Program-made: the position numbers and the translations under genes
Source of the DNA: a virus
Virus record (IMG/VR): IMGVR_UViG_3300023082_000009
Coordinates: 30,880-94,879 of that record
DNA length: 64,000 nucleotides
Direction: 5' to 3' (one strand)
The notes under the pieces: model-generated
Told to the model about the DNA's origin: nothing
The model's database searches: none
The model's input: the letters and a program-made list of their open reading frames with translations, nothing else
Shown: positions 11,488-31,047 of the stretch, one piece after another
How the letters are laid out: each line of letters begins with the position of its first letter
Position numbering within the stretch: the first letter of the stretch is position 1

Positions 11488-11862
11488 ATGACTAATGGTC
11501 AGATAGAAGAACCCGATTACTTCCTGTTGCACCTCCAACCCCTCTTGAAGGGCAAGAGCGTAAAGCTCGTAGTTGAGCAGGAAAAGACGCACGGAAAGGT
11601 TAACCGTCTCGTGCAAAAAGGATTACTCATCGCGCCAGGGAAAGTCTACGGACTCGATACCCATGCGATGGTAGTGTCGCTCCTCGGGAGCGGGAGCTGC
11701 GTGATCTATCCAGACTCGCAGACAAGCAAAGGTGAATTGGTCAAGGCTGGGCTCTCCGCTCGGCTGGCCATAGCCTTAATTGATTCACTTAAAAAACTCT
11801 ACGGAGAGTCAACCCATGGCACCGCAAAGACCCGCAAGACCCGCTCGCGCCGCAGCAAGTAA
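11488..11862 (+). CDS. hypothetical protein, possibly leaderless
   Basis: ORF starts 8 nt after the predicted -10 and has no SD. Confidence 0.55.
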   Translation: MTNGQIEEPDYFLLHLQPLLKGKSVKLVVEQEKTHGKVNRLVQKGLLIAPGKVYGLDTHAMVVSLLGSGSCVIYPDSQTSKGELVKAGLSARLAIALIDSLKKLYGESTHGTAKTRKTRSRRSK

Positions 11863-13096
11863 GGCGCCAGCAGCACGCACTTCCTACCGAGGCGACGCGG
11901 GCCGTCGTCAGATGGAGGAAGAGCAGATCCGCCAGGAAGCAGCCAAAGAAGCACGCAAGGCCAAAGGCTTTGAACCCTTCCGCTTCTGGACCCCGGTTGG
12001 CGAAACTCGCCAGATCGTGATCATCGACGACGCGCCGGACTTCTTCCGCTACGAGCACGCCCTGAAAAGTGCAGGCTCGAATCGCTACGACAACTTCTTG
12101 CCGTGCATCAACGAAGACGCCAACTGCCCGGCCTGCTCGGTATCCGAGAAGCCTGCGTACTTTGCCATGTACCTGTCGGTCATCGACCTGACTCCGTACA
12201 ACAACAAAGACGGCGACGAAGTTCCATGGTCCAAGAAAATGCTGGTCGTGAAACCGTCCCAGCAGAAGAAGATCTCCCGCCTGTTCGAGCGTGAAGGCTC
12301 CCTGCGCGGCATGATTCTGGACATGACCCGCGACGGCGACAAAGACGCGGCCATTGGCAACGACATCGAGTTCGTGGGCTGGATGGAAGAAGACGAACTG
12401 GCCACCTACTACGATGAATACACGGACAAAGACGGCAAGGTCCAAACCATCGACTGCCTGGAGCCGTTCGACTACGACAGCATCTACCCTGAAATGACCG
12501 AAGAGCAGTTGGCTACCATCGCAGGCGTAACCGACCACGGCGTGGGCAACCGTCGCCAGACTGATCGTGCGATTGGCCGTGGCGGTCGTGAAGCTCCAGC
12601 ACCAGCAGCTCGCGGTGGTCGTTCCGCAGGCCGTCGTGATGCCGAGGCGCCGACTCGTCCAGCGCGGGGCGGTCGTCAGGCTCCTGCCGATGATGGCAAC
12701 GATGACCAGCAGGACGCACCACAACGTGGTCGCCGCCCAGCGCCAGCAGCAGAAGCCCCGGCACGCGGTCGTCGCCAAGCAGCGGAAGAAGCCCCGGCGC
12801 CTACTCGTGGCCGCCGTGCGCCTCCACCGCCTGCCGACGATTACCCGGATGACCAGGGTGGCGAAGACTACGCCGATGACGCCCCAGCAGAAGCTCCACC
12901 GGCACGCGGCGGTCGTCGCCCGGCACCGGCAGCAGAAGCGCCTTCGCGTGGTCGCCGCCCATCGCCAGCAGCTGATGATGCCCCTCAGCGTCCAGCTCGC
13001 GGCGGTCGTGCGGCAGCAGCACACGAAGACCCGCCATTCGAGGAAGAGCCACCAGCAGCGCGGGGCCGTACTGCCCTTCGCGGTCGGCGTAACTAA
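11816..13096 (+). CDS. single-stranded DNA-binding protein (gp32-like) with long RGG/Pro/Ala-rich disordered tail
   Basis: FRFW...EH...C.....CPAC...YLSVIDL, typical of phage Zn-SSBs; highly biased codons; low-complexity C-terminal ~180 aa. Confidence 0.7.
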   Translation: MAPQRPARPARAAASKAPAARTSYRGDAGRRQMEEEQIRQEAAKEARKAKGFEPFRFWTPVGETRQIVIIDDAPDFFRYEHALKSAGSNRYDNFLPCINEDANCPACSVSEKPAYFAMYLSVIDLTPYNNKDGDEVPWSKKMLVVKPSQQKKISRLFEREGSLRGMILDMTRDGDKDAAIGNDIEFVGWMEEDELATYYDEYTDKDGKVQTIDCLEPFDYDSIYPEMTEEQLATIAGVTDHGVGNRRQTDRAIGRGGREAPAPAARGGRSAGRRDAEAPTRPARGGRQAPADDGNDDQQDAPQRGRRPAPAAEAPARGRRQAAEEAPAPTRGRRAPPPPADDYPDDQGGEDYADDAPAEAPPARGGRRPAPAAEAPSRGRRPSPAADDAPQRPARGGRAAAAHEDPPFEEEPPAARGRTALRGRRN

Positions 13097-14788: not shown

Positions 14789-15111
14789 GGCGAGGACATC
14801 GGCGCGAGGTGAGTCAAGCTGATATGGACGGTACCGCAATCGTAGAGAGCTACACGGTGCCCGAGGCGGCGGAGGCAATGGGCAAAGCCCTGAACACCTT
14901 CCGACGCTGGATACACGATGAACTGATCCCTGGCCCGTACCTGCATGACACGCAGTCGGGGTATCTGGTCTACAGCAGAGGCGAGCTGGACATAATCGCC
15001 CAGGCACTGCAAGTGCACGCCGAGGAGTTCTCCTACTTCCGGGCGGACCACACGACAGTGATTCATGCAATCAACCAGCGCATCCAGGCATACCGCTCGA
15101 TGCACATCTGA
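14593..15111 (+). CDS. HTH (MerR/excisionase-like) DNA-binding protein
   Basis: YTVPEAAEAMGKALNTFRRWIHDELIP; GGGAG SD before 14593; start could lie further downstream. Confidence 0.7.
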   Translation: MRRDRPKGRDLRPGNRAEIYADPNQQRRAKYSADGQGRAEKQADSRARYNAKVPKTASPPAPPSVRRGHRREVSQADMDGTAIVESYTVPEAAEAMGKALNTFRRWIHDELIPGPYLHDTQSGYLVYSRGELDIIAQALQVHAEEFSYFRADHTTVIHAINQRIQAYRSMHI

Positions 15112-15118
15112 GGTCACC

Positions 15119-15508
15119 ATGGCAGACCAACCAAGAGTCATTCGCCCGAAGGCTGCTCAAACGCGGCAGGCGGCGAGTCAAGAGATCGCGGGGCGTGCGA
15201 CAGTCCAGACGGACTACCGCAGGAAGAAGACCACCGAGCAGGAAACGGCAAGGCAGGAATCACTCGATGCGGGGTACTTTCCCCCAGGAGTGGAGCCTGC
15301 CCTTGTCCGTGTAGGGGTGGGCAACACCATCAACCTGGGTAACTTTGAGTCCATGCGCATCGACATCAGCATCACGCTGCCGTGTCTCGTCGAGGACATC
15401 GAAGACACCTACCGTCGCGCCAGCGAATACGCGTCGGAGTTCATGGCCGAAGAAGAAGCCGTATGGCTCGGGCCAACCAACGCCAATCCAGCAAAACCTA
15501 AGCGCTAA
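15119..15508 (+). CDS. conserved phage protein (TINLGNFES motif)
   Basis: GAGG SD; NTINLGNFESMRIDI motif common in phage replication modules. Confidence 0.7.
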   Translation: MADQPRVIRPKAAQTRQAASQEIAGRATVQTDYRRKKTTEQETARQESLDAGYFPPGVEPALVRVGVGNTINLGNFESMRIDISITLPCLVEDIEDTYRRASEYASEFMAEEEAVWLGPTNANPAKPKR

Positions 15509-17044: not shown

Positions 17045-18046
17045 ATGCCGATCATCCGCAGAATCCGAACCAGAGTGCAGGAACAGCCGCCGCAGCCGCG
17101 TGCTGAGTCCCGCGCCAGCCTCGCACTGCGTCGCCGTCGTGGCGAGACCGTGGAGCCGACGCCTGCCCCTGGTCGCCGGGTGCGCAACGCCAACCCAGAT
17201 ACCCAGGTTGTGCCTGCACCTAACACGGACTACCCCCTGGGCGAAGTGATCGACCGTGCGAAGTGGTCCATGCAGGACACGCGCCCAGGCCACCACCTCC
17301 ACGTCAGCGACCTGCTTTATAAGTGCATCCGCAAGCGTGCCCTGGAGGAGCGGTACAGCGTCCTGCCGCCAGCGCGCCGGTTGACCATGAGCGACATGCT
17401 GACCTTCGCGATGGGCGATGCCGTCCACGACTGTCTCAAGGAGCGTGCCCGCATCGGCGCACCCGAGAAGGTCTGGGGCATCTGGTCCTGCAAGTGCAAG
17501 TACCTCACGCACGACGAGCCTTGCATCTATGCCGAGATCAACCAGGAGGAGACGTGCCCACACTGCAAGTCCCTGGTTAACCACTACAACGAAGTCTCCA
17601 TGTTCGACGAGGAGTACGGGGTGGTCGGCAACCCTGACCTGATCCTGTACATCGAACGCAGCGATGCCTTCCATGTGACCGAACTCAAGTCGATGGCGCA
17701 CAAGCAGTGGGAGGAGCTGACCCGGCCCGATCCTGACCACGTTCGCCAAGTCGTCTTCTACTGGCACCTGATGCACCGCAAGGGCTACCGCCTCACCGAC
17801 CGCGTGTCGATCTTCTACTGCACCAAGCAATGGCAGTTCGGGGACAAGACCGTCTACAAGGAATTCCTCATCGACCCGGTGGCCGAGCTGCACCGCCTGG
17901 ACCCGATGATCGAAGATGCCAAGGCCTACAAGGCGTGCGTGGAACTCGGGGAGGCTGCACCTTTGCCACTCCGTACCCACTGCGCCCACGAAGGCTCCAA
18001 GGATGCAAAGAAGTGCGGGGTTCTCGAACTCTGCTTTGGAGAGTGA
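17045..18046 (+). CDS. Cas4-like PD-(D/E)XK exonuclease
   Basis: HVSDLLYKC, G.AVHD, GNPD...ELKS, QVVFY, C-terminal Cys cluster. Confidence 0.8.
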   Translation: MPIIRRIRTRVQEQPPQPRAESRASLALRRRRGETVEPTPAPGRRVRNANPDTQVVPAPNTDYPLGEVIDRAKWSMQDTRPGHHLHVSDLLYKCIRKRALEERYSVLPPARRLTMSDMLTFAMGDAVHDCLKERARIGAPEKVWGIWSCKCKYLTHDEPCIYAEINQEETCPHCKSLVNHYNEVSMFDEEYGVVGNPDLILYIERSDAFHVTELKSMAHKQWEELTRPDPDHVRQVVFYWHLMHRKGYRLTDRVSIFYCTKQWQFGDKTVYKEFLIDPVAELHRLDPMIEDAKAYKACVELGEAAPLPLRTHCAHEGSKDAKKCGVLELCFGE

Positions 18047-18047
18047 C

Positions 18048-18560
18048 ATGCGCATTCAGAGATCGCGCCCTGGTGCGCAGCCACAAGCAAAGGCCGAACA
18101 CATCCTGGGCGTAGACCCAGGCAACTCCGGCGCCCTCGTCGTGCTGACTGAGCGAGGGGCATTCGTCGACGCGCTCAACGTACCTATCGTTCAGTCAGGC
18201 AAGAGTTACCGCGTCAACGGGGCGGCGGTCGCTGCCTTCCTTTGGAAGTACAACATCATCCATGCCTACATCGAGAAGGTAGGGTCCATGCCCGGCCAGG
18301 GCGTCGCCTCGATGTTCACGTTCGGCCATGCAGCCGGGCTGGTAGAAGGTGTAGTAGCCGGTCAGATGATTCCGATCAGCCACATCACCCCGCAGTCCTG
18401 GAAGAAGATGGCCGGACTGACAGGCAAGGAGAAGGATTGCGCCCGGTCCCGCTGCGTCCAGCTCTACCCACACGTCCGCGTCCTGGACACCAAGGTGCGG
18501 GGCGGTGCAATAGGCGATGCCATCCTGATCGCCAGGGCCGGACACGGACTGCCGCTATAA
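18048..18560 (+). CDS. ruvC: RuvC-like Holliday junction resolvase
   Basis: ILGVDPG, AYIEKV...GVASMFTFG, PQSWKK, DAILIA. Confidence 0.85.
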   Translation: MRIQRSRPGAQPQAKAEHILGVDPGNSGALVVLTERGAFVDALNVPIVQSGKSYRVNGAAVAAFLWKYNIIHAYIEKVGSMPGQGVASMFTFGHAAGLVEGVVAGQMIPISHITPQSWKKMAGLTGKEKDCARSRCVQLYPHVRVLDTKVRGGAIGDAILIARAGHGLPL

Positions 18561-18599
18561 GTTTCAATGCAATTGATTGCACCAAAGGTCTGTGAAGAC

Positions 18600-18628
18600 T
18601 TGAATAAAGAATGAACCCGCCCTACTAT
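18600..18628 (+). promoter_or_regulatory. sigma70-like promoter
   Basis: TTGAAT-17 bp-TACTAT; a 16-bp palindrome copy lies just upstream at 18567-18582. Confidence 0.55.
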
Positions 18629-18690
18629 CACTTCGCGAGTTCACCAACTTGACCCGGCATCCCGCCACCTACACACGAGAGTTACCCACC

Positions 18691-20184
18691 ATGGCAAACA
18701 CCAAAGCTAAATCCGCTCCGGTTGAGGAAGCGGCTGCCGACATCGAAGTCGGTTCCAATGTCACCTTCCTCGGCTACGATGCCGACACCCCCGAAGCCGA
18801 ACGCATCCTCGAAGCTGGCGAGCGTTACGAAGTAATCGAACTGCCCGGCACCACCGAGATCGACGGCGAAGTTGTCGAAACCGGTTACGTTCTGCGCCTG
18901 CCGAACCCTGACTTCAACAAGAAGAAAAAGGTTCACGCCGAAACCAACCCTGAATTCCTGGAAACCGAAGTCTTCGCCGAAGAGATCGAACTCTACGTTG
19001 AAGGCGACGATGCGGGTGCCGAAGGTGGCGAAGCTGCCGACGCGGGCGCTGATGCCCCAGGCGATGATGACCCTCTGACCTACGAAGAGCTGGCCGGTTA
19101 CGACAAAGCCCAGCTGCTCGAATTCGCAGAAGTCAACGAAGTCAAGCTGACCGCAGCTGACAAGAAAACCGACAAGGCGCTCCTGGCCAAGCTGGCTGCC
19201 GTCTACGAGCTGAGCCCTGCCGAGCCTGCCCCTACCAAGGCACCGGCCAAACCAGCAGCCAAAACTGCCGCAGCCAAGCCTGCCGCCGAAGCGCCTGCTG
19301 CCAAGCCTGAAACCGCCGCAGCCAAGAAAAAGCGTGAAGCTGCCGAAGCCGCGCAGAAGACCGCAGCCGCTGCCAAGAACAAAGGCGTGAACAAGTCGCC
19401 CGAAGGCGAAGTCGATCCTGACGAAGTGCCGGACCTGGACAACGAAGACGATGCCGTTCTGGCGTTGATCGACGGTGACGTGGATCTGGTCGAAGTAGCC
19501 CAGGAACTGGAATCGGCGGTGGCCGTGTCCGAGTACCAACTCGGCGGCGTGCTGTACCACATCAAAAAAGAAAAAGTGCATCTGGCCGTCGACAAGAAGG
19601 GCAAGCTGCTCAACCCTGAATACGGCGAAACGGGCGGCTTCAAGCTGTTCCTCCAGGAGAACTTCAACCTGGACTACCGCAAGGCCACCTACCTGATCGA
19701 CATCTACATCAACTTCACCCAGGCCGGTATCGAAAACCCGTCCGAAGTTGTTGGCCGTATCGGCTGGACCAAGGCAAGCAAGATCGCCAAGCCGCTGGGC
19801 CTGCCTGACGCTGACGTAGAAGGCCTGATCCAGGCTGCCGAGAACAACACCGTTCAAGACCTGTCTACCATCATCAAAGATGAATTCACGGTCGGCGGCG
19901 GTGAGGGCGCCAGCAAAGGCTCCGAAGGTACCAAGGTCAATCGCCTGACCCTGCGCTTCCGCTTCGTTGAAGAAGAAGCCAACGTGGTCGAGGACATCCT
20001 CAAGGAAGCCGCTGAGAAACTCGGCGTCAAAGAAGATGAAGCCTTGTTCCAGATCCTGACCGAGTATCACGCACAAGCCCTGACCGGCGACGCTGATGCC
20101 CAGGACGTGGAAGACACTGCCAAGGCAGCGGCCAACGCCAAGCCAGCTACACGCGGTAAGCCTCGTGGCGCAGCTCGTGCCTAA
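18691..20184 (+). CDS. acidic multidomain putative DNA-binding protein (HeH/Rho-N-like, AKP-rich linker, DUF3102/HTH-like, RHH-like C-terminus)
   Basis: Strongly biased codons; own promoter and terminator; LGGVLYHIK...FKLFLQENFNLDYRKATYLIDIY...IGWTKA. Confidence 0.6.
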   Translation: MANTKAKSAPVEEAAADIEVGSNVTFLGYDADTPEAERILEAGERYEVIELPGTTEIDGEVVETGYVLRLPNPDFNKKKKVHAETNPEFLETEVFAEEIELYVEGDDAGAEGGEAADAGADAPGDDDPLTYEELAGYDKAQLLEFAEVNEVKLTAADKKTDKALLAKLAAVYELSPAEPAPTKAPAKPAAKTAAAKPAAEAPAAKPETAAAKKKREAAEAAQKTAAAAKNKGVNKSPEGEVDPDEVPDLDNEDDAVLALIDGDVDLVEVAQELESAVAVSEYQLGGVLYHIKKEKVHLAVDKKGKLLNPEYGETGGFKLFLQENFNLDYRKATYLIDIYINFTQAGIENPSEVVGRIGWTKASKIAKPLGLPDADVEGLIQAAENNTVQDLSTIIKDEFTVGGGEGASKGSEGTKVNRLTLRFRFVEEEANVVEDILKEAAEKLGVKEDEALFQILTEYHAQALTGDADAQDVEDTAKAAANAKPATRGKPRGAARA

Positions 20185-20202
20185 CTGACCCGCAGCAACC
20201 AG

Positions 20203-20232
20203 AAAAGGCACCCACTACCGGGTGCCTTTTTT
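20203..20232 (+). terminator. intrinsic terminator
   Basis: AAAAGGCACCC-ACTACC-GGGTGCCTTTTTT. Confidence 0.85.
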
Positions 20233-20252
20233 ACTTGACCAGGAGATCTGCT

Positions 20253-21014
20253 ATGCCAACTCCAATTCGCCCAGGTCGTAAGTCGGTGAACGTGACCCGA
20301 CCAGAGAAGGGCAGTACCCCGGCACGCCCGTCGCGCCCTGCGCCACGGCCAAAGCCAACCGACATGTCCAAGGTCAAACTGCGCCTTGAGTACGTGGACA
20401 TCAATGACATCCAGCCCTACGAATGGAACGCACGCGACAACGCCAAGGCTGTGACTGCCGTGGCCAACTCGATCAGAGCGTTCGGCTTTGTCGTGCCCGT
20501 AGTGATCGACGCCAACGGCGTGCTGGGCGCTGGCCACACTCGTGTCGAAGCAGCCAAGACCCTGGGAATGCTGGAGGTTCCTGCGGTGCGGGCGGAGCAC
20601 TTGACCAAGGAACAGATGGACGCCTTCCGTATCGCCGATAACAAGGTGGCGGAGATGGCAACCTGGAATACCTCGATGCTGGCGGATGAGATGGACAAGC
20701 TGACCGGCCTGTTCGACTTCACCGACTTCGGTTTCGGCCAGGGCGAGATCGACTGCCTTGCGTCCCTGGTAGGCGACGACTGCCTGTCTACTGCCAACCT
20801 GGGCGCCCTCACCGGTACCGCAGCAGGCGAAGAGACTCCAGGCCGCAGCGTTCGCCGTGCGCCGCTCCAGGCCCGCATCGTGATCGGTGAGCTGACCTTC
20901 TTTGTCCCCGCCGAGCAGTACCGTAACTGGGTGCAGGGTCTGCGCGATCTGCACGACTTCAAAGACGAAGACATTGCGGCTGATCTGAAACGCCGCCTGG
21001 GGTTCCACGAATGA
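20253..21014 (+). CDS. ParB/Srx N-terminal domain protein
   Basis: IQPYEWNAR...SIRAFGFVVPVVID...AGHTR..AA...RIADNK. Confidence 0.9.
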   Translation: MPTPIRPGRKSVNVTRPEKGSTPARPSRPAPRPKPTDMSKVKLRLEYVDINDIQPYEWNARDNAKAVTAVANSIRAFGFVVPVVIDANGVLGAGHTRVEAAKTLGMLEVPAVRAEHLTKEQMDAFRIADNKVAEMATWNTSMLADEMDKLTGLFDFTDFGFGQGEIDCLASLVGDDCLSTANLGALTGTAAGEETPGRSVRRAPLQARIVIGELTFFVPAEQYRNWVQGLRDLHDFKDEDIAADLKRRLGFHE

Positions 21015-30213: not shown

Positions 30214-31047
30214 ATGGGTAGCAGCTACCAGTCGGAACGCCGCAAGGGCCGCAACACTAAGGGCAAAGGCAACCGCGAGCAGGACGGCAGCAATAATATT
30301 CTCGACCTCAACGACGCTCTGGCCCGTAAGGAAGGCCCGACCAAGAAGCAATGGCACGAACACGACCTCCGCCACATCAAGGCCAAGACCGATGGCCAGG
30401 AGACCGCCATCCAGGCATGGTTCGCTGACCCCGAGGGTCACCTCTCCCTGATCGGTTCCGCAGGTACCGGCAAATCCCTCCTCGCTGTCTACTGCGCCTC
30501 CGTTGACTACACTCGCGGTCAGGTAGAAGGCATCACCATCATTCGAGCCTCCGTGCCCAAGCGTGACCCTGGCGCACTGCCCGGCACCCTGGAGCAGAAG
30601 CAGGCCCCGTACGAGGCTCCCTACGCCTCGCTCCTGCAAACTCTGTTCGGTCGCAAGTCCACCTACGACGACATGAAGGCCGCAGGCGTCATCGAGTACA
30701 AGTCGACCAGCTACATCCGTGGCACCACCATCGACAACCGCATCATCATCGTCGAGGAAGCCCAGAACCTGGACTTCGACGAGATCGACTCCGTGCTCAC
30801 TCGGGCGGGTGAAGGCTCTCGGGTGATCCTGACCGGCGACACGCTGCGTCAATGCGACCTCAAGCACTTCGAGACCTCCGGCATTCAGATCCTCAAGGAA
30901 GTCCAGGACAAGCTGGAAGGTATGACCGTCGTGGAGTTCGGCCCGCATGACTGCGTGCGCTCTGGCTTTGCTCGGTCCTGGCTCCTGGCCACGGAAGACT
31001 TCTTCACCGAGCAGCGTGCCCGCGAGCGCAACGAACGCAACGCTTGA
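30214..31047 (+). CDS. phoH: PhoH-like ATPase
   Basis: GSAGTGKS, G.LPGTL..K, YIRGTT, EEAQN, LTR.G..S.VIL.GD..Q.DL. Confidence 0.93.
   Translation: MGSSYQSERRKGRNTKGKGNREQDGSNNILDLNDALARKEGPTKKQWHEHDLRHIKAKTDGQETAIQAWFADPEGHLSLIGSAGTGKSLLAVYCASVDYTRGQVEGITIIRASVPKRDPGALPGTLEQKQAPYEAPYASLLQTLFGRKSTYDDMKAAGVIEYKSTSYIRGTTIDNRIIIVEEAQNLDFDEIDSVLTRAGEGSRVILTGDTLRQCDLKHFETSGIQILKEVQDKLEGMTVVEFGPHDCVRSGFARSWLLATEDFFTEQRARERNERNA

Follow-up and report, generated by a model that had tools for sequence, protein, structure and literature searches.

We analyzed a 64,000-nucleotide stretch of viral DNA (the window), which comprises positions 30,880 to 94,879 of IMG/VR record IMGVR_UViG_3300023082_000009 and belongs to a phage genome of 94.9 kb. 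At 18691-20184 of the window lies a gene that we call gene X, and a copy of a palindrome that recurs throughout the phage genome is found just upstream of its promoter. A gene encoding a protein with only the ParB nucleotide-binding domain (ParB-N) follows. An earlier, sequence-only reading had joined these elements into a split ParB, in which the X protein would recognize the palindrome and recruit its ParB-like neighbor. Our analysis makes X the strongest current candidate for the protein that reads the dispersed palindrome and places the ParB-N gene in a separate cassette. The phage has distant relatives in the Pseudomonas Samunavirus phages PaMx31, SM1, and UF_RH6, whose X proteins are about 45% identical to that encoded here, and remoter ones in the Vibrio SIO-2-like phages and Rhodobacter phage RcZahn. 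Comparison with known phages at the DNA level gave one weak 15% match only. In the literature searched, no function was described for the X gene of these phages and the palindromic motif was not mentioned. The features of the locus, in window coordinates, are as follows.

Ending at 18560: RuvC-like gene
18567..18582: palindrome copy (core TGCAATTGATTGCA at 18568-18581, flanked by A and C), 18 nt 5' of the -35 of gene X
18600..18628, plus strand: sigma70-like promoter of X, read by eye (TTGAAT at 18600-18605, 17-nt spacer, TACTAT at 18623-18628)
18691..20184, plus strand: gene X, starting with ATG, 497 residues; phrog_17202, function unknown
18748..18999, plus strand: X residues 20-103, acidic SH3/KOW-like beta-barrel (AlphaFold2 pLDDT 94-97)
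19072..19206, plus strand: X residues 128-172, two-helix HeH/SAP-like insertion (from model and alignment)
19216..19395, plus strand: X residues 176-235, disordered Ala/Lys/Pro-rich basic linker, net charge +8
19450..19890, plus strand: X residues 254-400, helical domain with a predicted ParB/KorB-type DNA-binding fold (domain model pLDDT 90)
19933..20085, plus strand: X residues 415-465, beta-alpha-alpha, ribbon-helix-helix (RHH)-like
20203..20232, plus strand: intrinsic terminator after X, a 7-bp GC stem lengthened by A-U pairs and followed by a T run
20253..21014, plus strand: ParB-N-only gene, 253 residues; Shine-Dalgarno (SD) sequence GGAG 7 nt 5' of the ATG

Expression and architecture of gene X

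Gene X is the final gene of a conserved RecA/resolvase/Cas4-like exonuclease/RuvC block, and these upstream genes are its stable partners. X is probably made at a high level, as judged from its promoter, its strong terminator, and a codon usage typical of high expression. The promoter assigned to 18691-20184 in the sequence-only reading was borne out by conservation: the closest relatives (L005 and L006) have the identical -35/17/-10 arrangement, and a sigma70-like promoter stands at the equivalent place in almost all relatives. The terminator of that reading held up upon folding: its dG was -25.1 kcal/mol (z -5.8), a value that 0 of 200 shuffles reached. Note that in a consensus promoter/terminator scan the X promoter was under threshold and the X terminator was also missed. 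The palindrome copy noted just 5' of the -35 was likewise confirmed. The very biased codons attributed to the gene proved qualitatively distinct from those of the 22 other window genes, although the effective number of codons (34) is not extreme. GAA accounts for 77% of the Glu codons in X versus 5-55% in the other genes, CGT usage is 42% and GTT usage 28%, and the G+C content of third codon positions is 0.68 versus 0.72-0.87. In Pseudomonas such a codon pattern is a mark of highly expressed genes.

The layout of X was derived from an alignment of 59 homologs plus two AlphaFold models, one of the whole protein and one of the domain. From the N terminus the order is beta-barrel, two-helix insertion, basic linker, acidic stretch, helical domain, Gly-rich loop, strand-helix-helix, and basic tail. 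The protein has a net charge of -43, of which residues 1-130 contribute -25, in agreement with the acidic N terminus described earlier; the AKP-rich linker of the same description is also present (residues 176-235). The beta-barrel gave VIA Z scores of 5.3-6.2 to PsaE, the KOW (C-terminal) domain of NusG, SH3 proteins, and ribosomal KOW proteins; SIO-2 and RcZahn have X homologs that lack it. The segment called HeH-like was not confirmed. Two confident helices are modeled at residues 131-171, but Pfam gave no match within residues 1-170, HeH, SAP, and LEM included, and the insertion is confined to close relatives, in some of which it is duplicated. Within the C-terminal half, two helices are invariant, YRKA and GW(T/S/A)K, the latter in GWTKASKIA, and the strand RLTLRFRF alternates basic or polar with hydrophobic residues as do the ribbons of RHH proteins.

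The X family is large, with about 2800 clusters at 50% identity (2,807 profile-search matches among 1.84 billion representatives), and the best 150 of the 2,807 matches all have one architecture. No sequence model recognizes any part of X. Pfam searches with the whole protein and its pieces to E 10 found nothing, those with the 59 homologs found nothing real, and searches of the PDB by sequence and by profile gave low-complexity matches only. No match to HTH_ParB or KorB (HTH, helix-turn-helix) was found by Pfam in X or the 59 homologs, and none to an RHH family in X. ParB_N was found in X by neither Pfam nor PHROGs, the N-terminal domain being an SH3/KOW-like barrel instead. DUF3102 (PF11300) gave no match in X at E<=10, and none of the 59 homologs matched it at E<=1; the DUF3102 call of the sequence-only reading is therefore unsupported at the sequence level. 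The helical domain to which it was attached is present in the models and resembles a known fold.

That resemblance was seen when the X domain model (pLDDT 90) was compared with 48,161 chains by VIA-align. The best match of the helical domain was the DNA-binding domain of Caulobacter ParB with parS (6s6h, Z 7.0 over 103 residues), followed by Thermus Spo0J (1vz0, 6.2), KorB (8qa8 and 1r71, 5.5 and 5.3), VirB (4.7), and SopB (4.4). Only six of the 48,161 chains reached Z>=5, of which four are ParB, Spo0J, or KorB and two are Raf1 helical domains. Caulobacter ParB again ranked first with the whole-protein model. ESM Atlas provided leads only: ParB-HTH clusters at TM 0.42-0.43, and neighboring clusters of which 16-23% of the members carry PF11300 (score 0.87, TM 0.48). 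We regard a ParB/KorB-type DNA-binding fold as probable for residues 254-400 on the strength of these models. The RHH-like end was borne out as a resemblance: residues 415-465 form a beta-alpha-alpha unit with VIA Z of about 4.2 over about 50 residues to the RHH antitoxins 8u12, 6a6x, 7wj0, and 7zg6, a weak match of a small domain.

A palindrome dispersed through the genomes of X-bearing phages

The motif class was counted as TG(C/A)AA-N4-TT(G/T)CA, the fuller site being TTG(C/A)AAT-NN-ATT(G/T)CAA (14-16 bp). Within the window the core TGCAATTGATTGCA, with at most two mismatches, gave 36 strand matches (about 21 sites) versus 0.36 expected. The genome contains 26 motif sites, about one per 3-4 kb, of which 22 are the identical 14-mer; the 16-mer form of the site is GTGCAATTGATTGCAC. 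Phage UF_RH6 has 30 sites of TGCAARCGYTTGCA, in which the outer arms are alike and the center is different. Of the 42 viral loci encoding X, 39 contain the motif class, with densities of 1.5-6.7 sites per 10 kb versus 0-0.2 expected. Whole records contain 10, 14, 24, 35, and 36 sites versus 0-1 for the reversed control, and RcZahn contains nine. X and the motif occur together in phages of Pseudomonas, Vibrio, Rhodobacter, and further hosts and in many uncultured viral contigs. The palindrome is a hallmark of the whole X-bearing phage group, each genome having 9-36 sites and the controls 0-1.

In nearly all copies in this genome the palindrome has the asymmetric center TG/CA, giving CAATTG, and many relatives have a fully symmetric CG center, TGCAATCGATTGCA.

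The sites are spaced more evenly than chance in this phage (coefficient of variation 0.65, P 0.013), UF_RH6 (P 0.002), and SIO-2 (P 0.018); the effect is borderline in genome G005 and not significant in genome G001. The largest gap between sites (window 1244-59230 and upstream) is 8.4 kb versus 14 kb expected. Many sites occupy short gaps between genes, directly 5' of ribosome-binding sites. By a heuristic that recognizes an SD sequence plus a start codon, nine of the 26 sites lie 30 nt or less 5' of a gene start, versus 2.9 +/- 1.6 for random placement, and six of these are at 11-14 nt. That nearness, together with the ability of GUGCAA-UUGA-UUGCAC to form a 6-bp hairpin, could be taken to mean that the motif acts in RNA, as a processing signal or translational operator in 5' leaders, and that its link with X is coincidental. 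The asymmetric variants argue otherwise, as they have no strand bias: G..T and A..C centers are equally common on the sense strand in UF_RH6, where only one could pair in RNA, and in this genome both orientations precede genes of one strand. Moreover, many sites are within coding sequence or after stop codons, the even spacing is genome-wide, and the nearness to SD sequences may simply reflect the placing of a 16-bp element in the very short intergenic gaps of a tightly packed genome. We rejected the RNA-hairpin reading on the absent strand bias and leave it only a very remote chance. Since the asymmetric variants are without strand bias, the site acts on duplex DNA with two-fold symmetry.

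The ParB-N cassette next to gene X

The product of 20253-21014 matched phrog_620 (2.4e-46), phrog_498 (2.1e-37), and phrog_15396 (5.2e-32), and its score against the Pfam ParB_N model PF02195 was 20.9 bits, under the cut-off of 26.3. The phosphate-binding GxxR motif of ParB_N is present as G94-H-T-R97, which is invariant in 23 homologs, and no HTH family was matched in Pfam or PHROGs. The earlier description of this gene as one having only the ParB nucleotide-binding domain was thus accurate. The protein consists of an Arg-rich N terminus, ParB_N with GHTR, a helical region, two DCL motifs, an RRAP motif, and a beta-alpha-alpha tail, and it resembles the N-terminal module of the phage ParB-N methyltransferases (phrog_498). 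GHTR stands in place of the GERRxR of clamp-forming CTPase ParBs. In the homologs the two Cys motifs, E(I/L)DCL and DCL, are about 10 residues apart, and the tail is invariant as RRAP...R.V.GE..FF...YR.W. The DCL motifs and tail could bind a metal or a partner or take part in redox chemistry. A consensus scan found no separate promoter for the gene, which seems to be made by read-through of the X terminator.

The ParB-N gene is the first of a cassette composed of ParB-N, a ParB-N methyltransferase fusion (ParB-MTase), a second methyltransferase (MTase), and terminase, and the ParB-MTase, the second MTase, and terminase are the stable partners of ParB-N. The same cassette is found in Gordonia phage Evaa as genes 1, 2, 5, and 6 at the left genome end (L061, 1-7213). 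Because it is found at the left end of this actinophage, the cassette is portable and terminase-linked. Genes for ParB-N alone and for ParB-N-MTases lie by terminases or genome ends in hundreds of unrelated phages. The 20253-21014 gene belongs with these stand-alone 'ParB-like nuclease domain' genes, from which it differs in its Arg-rich N-terminal tag, its two DCL motifs, and its RRAP-beta-alpha-alpha tail. In this lineage the cassette is inserted between X and the terminase genes (TerS) and is separate from X.

The split-ParB reading holds that X is the site-specific HTH and dimer part, that ParB-N (and ParB-MTase) is a nucleotide-gated clamp, and that X loads these clamps at the palindromes. 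Spreading outward, the clamps would then modify or package the DNA. Several observations fit this reading. The domains complement one another, with a ParB-like DNA-binding domain in X and an HTH-less ParB_N next door; the two genes adjoin in about 38 of the 42 loci; ParB-N, having no promoter of its own, would depend on read-through from X; and the conserved Arg-rich N terminus of ParB-N could dock on the acidic X. The distribution of the parts argues otherwise. X and the motif occur without ParB-N in SIO-2 (complete) and G001 (98% complete), as searched with PF02195 and with a profile of the 23 homologs. In RcZahn, X follows the recombination genes with no ParB-N adjoining, and the sole ParB-N-like match, distant from X near the start of the genome, covers 40 residues (E 0.009). 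Conversely, Evaa has the cassette without X and without the motif, and no other dispersed palindrome was found in 57 of the 61 kb of this genome. The co-occurrence of motif and genes, which the sequence-only reading had put forward as a check, was found for carriers of X (39 of 42 loci) and not for the ParB cassette of Evaa. ParB-N-only and ParB-N-MTase genes are, moreover, widespread in unrelated phages, and the GHTR motif is not that of clamp-forming ParBs. Nor was a fusion of X with ParB_N found among 109 near-length homologs or the best 150 of the 2,807 HMM matches. The similar beta-alpha-alpha tails that had been ascribed to X and ParB-N are not detectably related: when the tail or the DNA-binding domain of X was aligned by hhalign with the ParB-N tail, middle, or whole, the probability was below 1%. 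We consider a split ParB quite unlikely and find no support for an obligatory pairing in which X brings ParB or ParB-MTase clamps into one parS-guided modification and packaging system; a facultative interaction of X and ParB-N in this lineage seems similarly doubtful. Two things that looked linked in the window are now separated, the ParB-N/ParB-MTase cassette belonging with terminase rather than with the palindromes.

X as candidate reader of the palindrome

This phage, SIO-2, and G001 have 17 BLAST-detectable core genes in common, among which only X has a predicted sequence-specific DNA-binding fold. The others encode virion proteins, PolA, primase, DnaB-like and SF2 helicases, RecA, resolvase, exonuclease, TerL, and two proteins of unknown function (11780-13096, 438 residues, and 15065-15508, 147 residues). 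SIO-2 and G001, which have no ParB-N, retain both X and the motif. The most conserved X helices (YRKA and GWTKASKIA) parallel a nearly invariant half-site, and helix variants go with variant sites: the GWAK helix with TGAAAT arms in L022, L031, L035, and L043, ARKA (for YRKA) and GWSK with TGCAARC in UF_RH6, and PRKA and GWSK with TGCAAC in L045. In most related loci a motif copy lies 7-29 nt 5' of the -35 of X, and the RcZahn copy is 75 nt 5' of the X start. This conserved copy upstream of the X promoter suggests autoregulation. The earlier proposal that X recognizes the 16-bp sites and autoregulates is consistent with the fold, the co-distribution, and the upstream copy in most relatives, although the autoregulatory part does not extend to SIO-2 and G001, which have no copy near X. 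We infer that X binds DNA, is specific for the motif, and controls its own synthesis, and we tentatively favor, at slightly under an even chance, a KorB-like, CTPase-less reader of the palindromes that is probably autoregulated.

In such a scheme X would be an abundant, very acidic, probably dimeric DNA-binding protein made from its own promoter. X would dimerize through its RHH-like end, and the two ParB-type HTH domains of the dimer would bind the 16-bp site with parS-like geometry, one on each 8-bp half; the basic linker and basic tail would add unspecific DNA contacts. An occupied site at about -60 of the X promoter would feed back on X synthesis, and X bound between cistrons could adjust the transcription that crosses these sites. 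An additional genome-wide role, in organizing or marking phage DNA, is suggested by the even spacing. X would then act as does KorB of RK2, a single protein that sits on a network of dispersed operators and sets its own level.

KorB, the global repressor of the IncP plasmids RK2/RP4 and a member of the ParB superfamily, is the known system most like X in several respects. The helical domain of X resembles the ParB-type HTH fold of KorB (Z 5.3-5.5 to 8qa8 and 1r71), the protein is acidic, a dozen or more palindromic operators are dispersed, some by promoters and some far from them, and its own gene is under such an operator. KorB has an SH3-like domain at its C terminus. In X the SH3-like domain is N-terminal and the C-terminal end is RHH-like, and there is no sequence similarity. 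X is carried by a lytic-type siphophage (about 95 kb) instead of a plasmid, and no KorA or IncC/ParA partner was identified for X, no ParA search having been made. X also lacks the ParB_N CTPase domain, and therefore neither clamp nor sliding is expected from X alone. Chromosomal ParB/Spo0J gave the best fold matches of the helical domain (6s6h and 1vz0), and the palindrome, like parS, is a 16-bp inverted repeat of two 8-bp halves. In contrast to ParB/Spo0J, X has no N-terminal CTP-binding domain, no GERRxR, and no detectable sequence homology, and its 25-36 sites are evenly spread, whereas parS sites are few and origin-proximal. RHH binders (ParG, omega, CopG, Arc, and RHH antitoxins) are resembled by X in its predicted beta-alpha-alpha end with the amphipathic strand R-L-T-L-R-F-R-F (VIA Z about 4 to RHH antitoxins), but the end of X is weakly matched, small, and joined to a large multidomain protein. 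The stoperators of Cluster A mycobacteriophages and the start-associated sequences of Cluster K are present in tens of copies of 13-17 bp, many just 5' of starts, with one phage-encoded reader. Stoperators are asymmetric, oriented with transcription, and bound by the immunity repressor of temperate phages. The palindrome described here differs in being two-fold symmetric, present in both orientations, evenly spaced, and kept across Pseudomonas, Vibrio, and Rhodobacter phages.

A number of points weigh against X as the reader. No sequence-level homology of X to any DNA-binding family was found. The ParB/KorB-type fold is no more than probable because Foldseek against the PDB returned nothing for either X model, because a VIA Z of 7 is within chance reach of helical domains (Raf1 helical domains score alongside), and because ESM Atlas gave leads only. 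The negative charge of the whole protein speaks against DNA binding, as does that of its putative DNA-binding domain (net -10). In SIO-2 and G001 no motif copy lies directly 5' of X, and autoregulation is therefore not universal. The covariation of helix and half-site is only suggestive since the events are few and phylogenetically linked. Finally, the reader could be the 438-residue or the 147-residue unknown, or a small regulator too divergent for BLAST. The smaller unknown, 15065-15508 (phrog_25619/5189), lies directly 5' of RecA and is kept in this phage, UF_RH6, SIO-2, and G001; its product is an alternative candidate for a conserved regulator.

In a rival reading, X is an abundant acidic accessory of the recombination/replication block, for example a mediator, DNA mimic, nucleoid-type coat, or docking hub, and another phage or host protein binds the palindromes. 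X always closes the RecA/resolvase/exonuclease/RuvC block, its charge and the lack of a sequence family backing DNA binding fit an accessory role, the two core unknowns are at hand as readers, and some records label homologs as putative single-stranded DNA (ssDNA)-binding proteins. However, KorB is itself strongly acidic, the fold matches are repeatedly to ParB-type DNA-binding domains plus RHH, and YRKA and GWTKASKIA are invariant alongside the almost invariant half-site. The ssDNA-binding label comes from the UF_RH6 record (OQ383211.1; L001, L003, and L004) and is not evidence because the product names of that record look misassigned: the TerL homolog is called a minor tail protein, the ParB-MTase homolog a tail fiber protein, and the RecA homolog an HNH endonuclease. 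We also disfavor an ssDNA-binding protein (SSB) identity on other grounds, as the C terminus is basic instead of ending in the acidic tip expected of an SSB and the N-domain matches SH3/KOW folds, with no oligonucleotide/oligosaccharide-binding (OB)-fold SSB among the matches listed. An accessory that does not read the palindromes seems to us unlikely, though it deserves to be taken seriously.

A related lead concerns Arg-rich N-terminal tags, which are found on RecA, exonuclease, RuvC, ParB-N, ParB-MTase, TerS, and TerL (window 15520, 17045, 17916-18560, 20253, 21516, 24093, and 24878). The tags on RecA, exonuclease, RuvC, and TerL recur in the five phages examined that have the X N-domain (this phage, L001, L017, L042, and L046) and are absent or weak in SIO-2 and RcZahn (L002 and L062), in which X is without the SH3-like N-domain. 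ParB-N homologs also bear Arg-rich tags. Note that this comparison comprises seven genomes that are not phylogenetically independent. X might be a DNA-anchored docking hub that holds palindromes through its ParB-like/RHH half while the acidic SH3-like N-domain captures the tags, concentrating recombination, modification, and packaging enzymes; we regard this as a long shot. TerL-homolog open frames are about 960-1030 residues in L017, L028, L034, L036, L043, and L046 versus 636 residues here, and RecA-bearing open frames are about 730-740 residues in L022 and L046 versus 379 here. Inteins or homing-endonuclease insertions may be the cause.

Returning to X as a KorB-like reader, the models would make this large, unannotated family a ParB/KorB-type operator binder without a nucleotide domain, in a new architecture, a view to which we give almost, but not quite, even weight. 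The family pairs with a conserved cis-element across whole phage genomes. If X reads these sites, phages would have their own version of the KorB operator network, one that lacks a CTP switch. It would then offer a simple system in which to ask what a ParB-type DNA-binding domain does without a clamp and, as the genus Samunavirus includes therapy phages, a handle on gene control or DNA organization in such phages.

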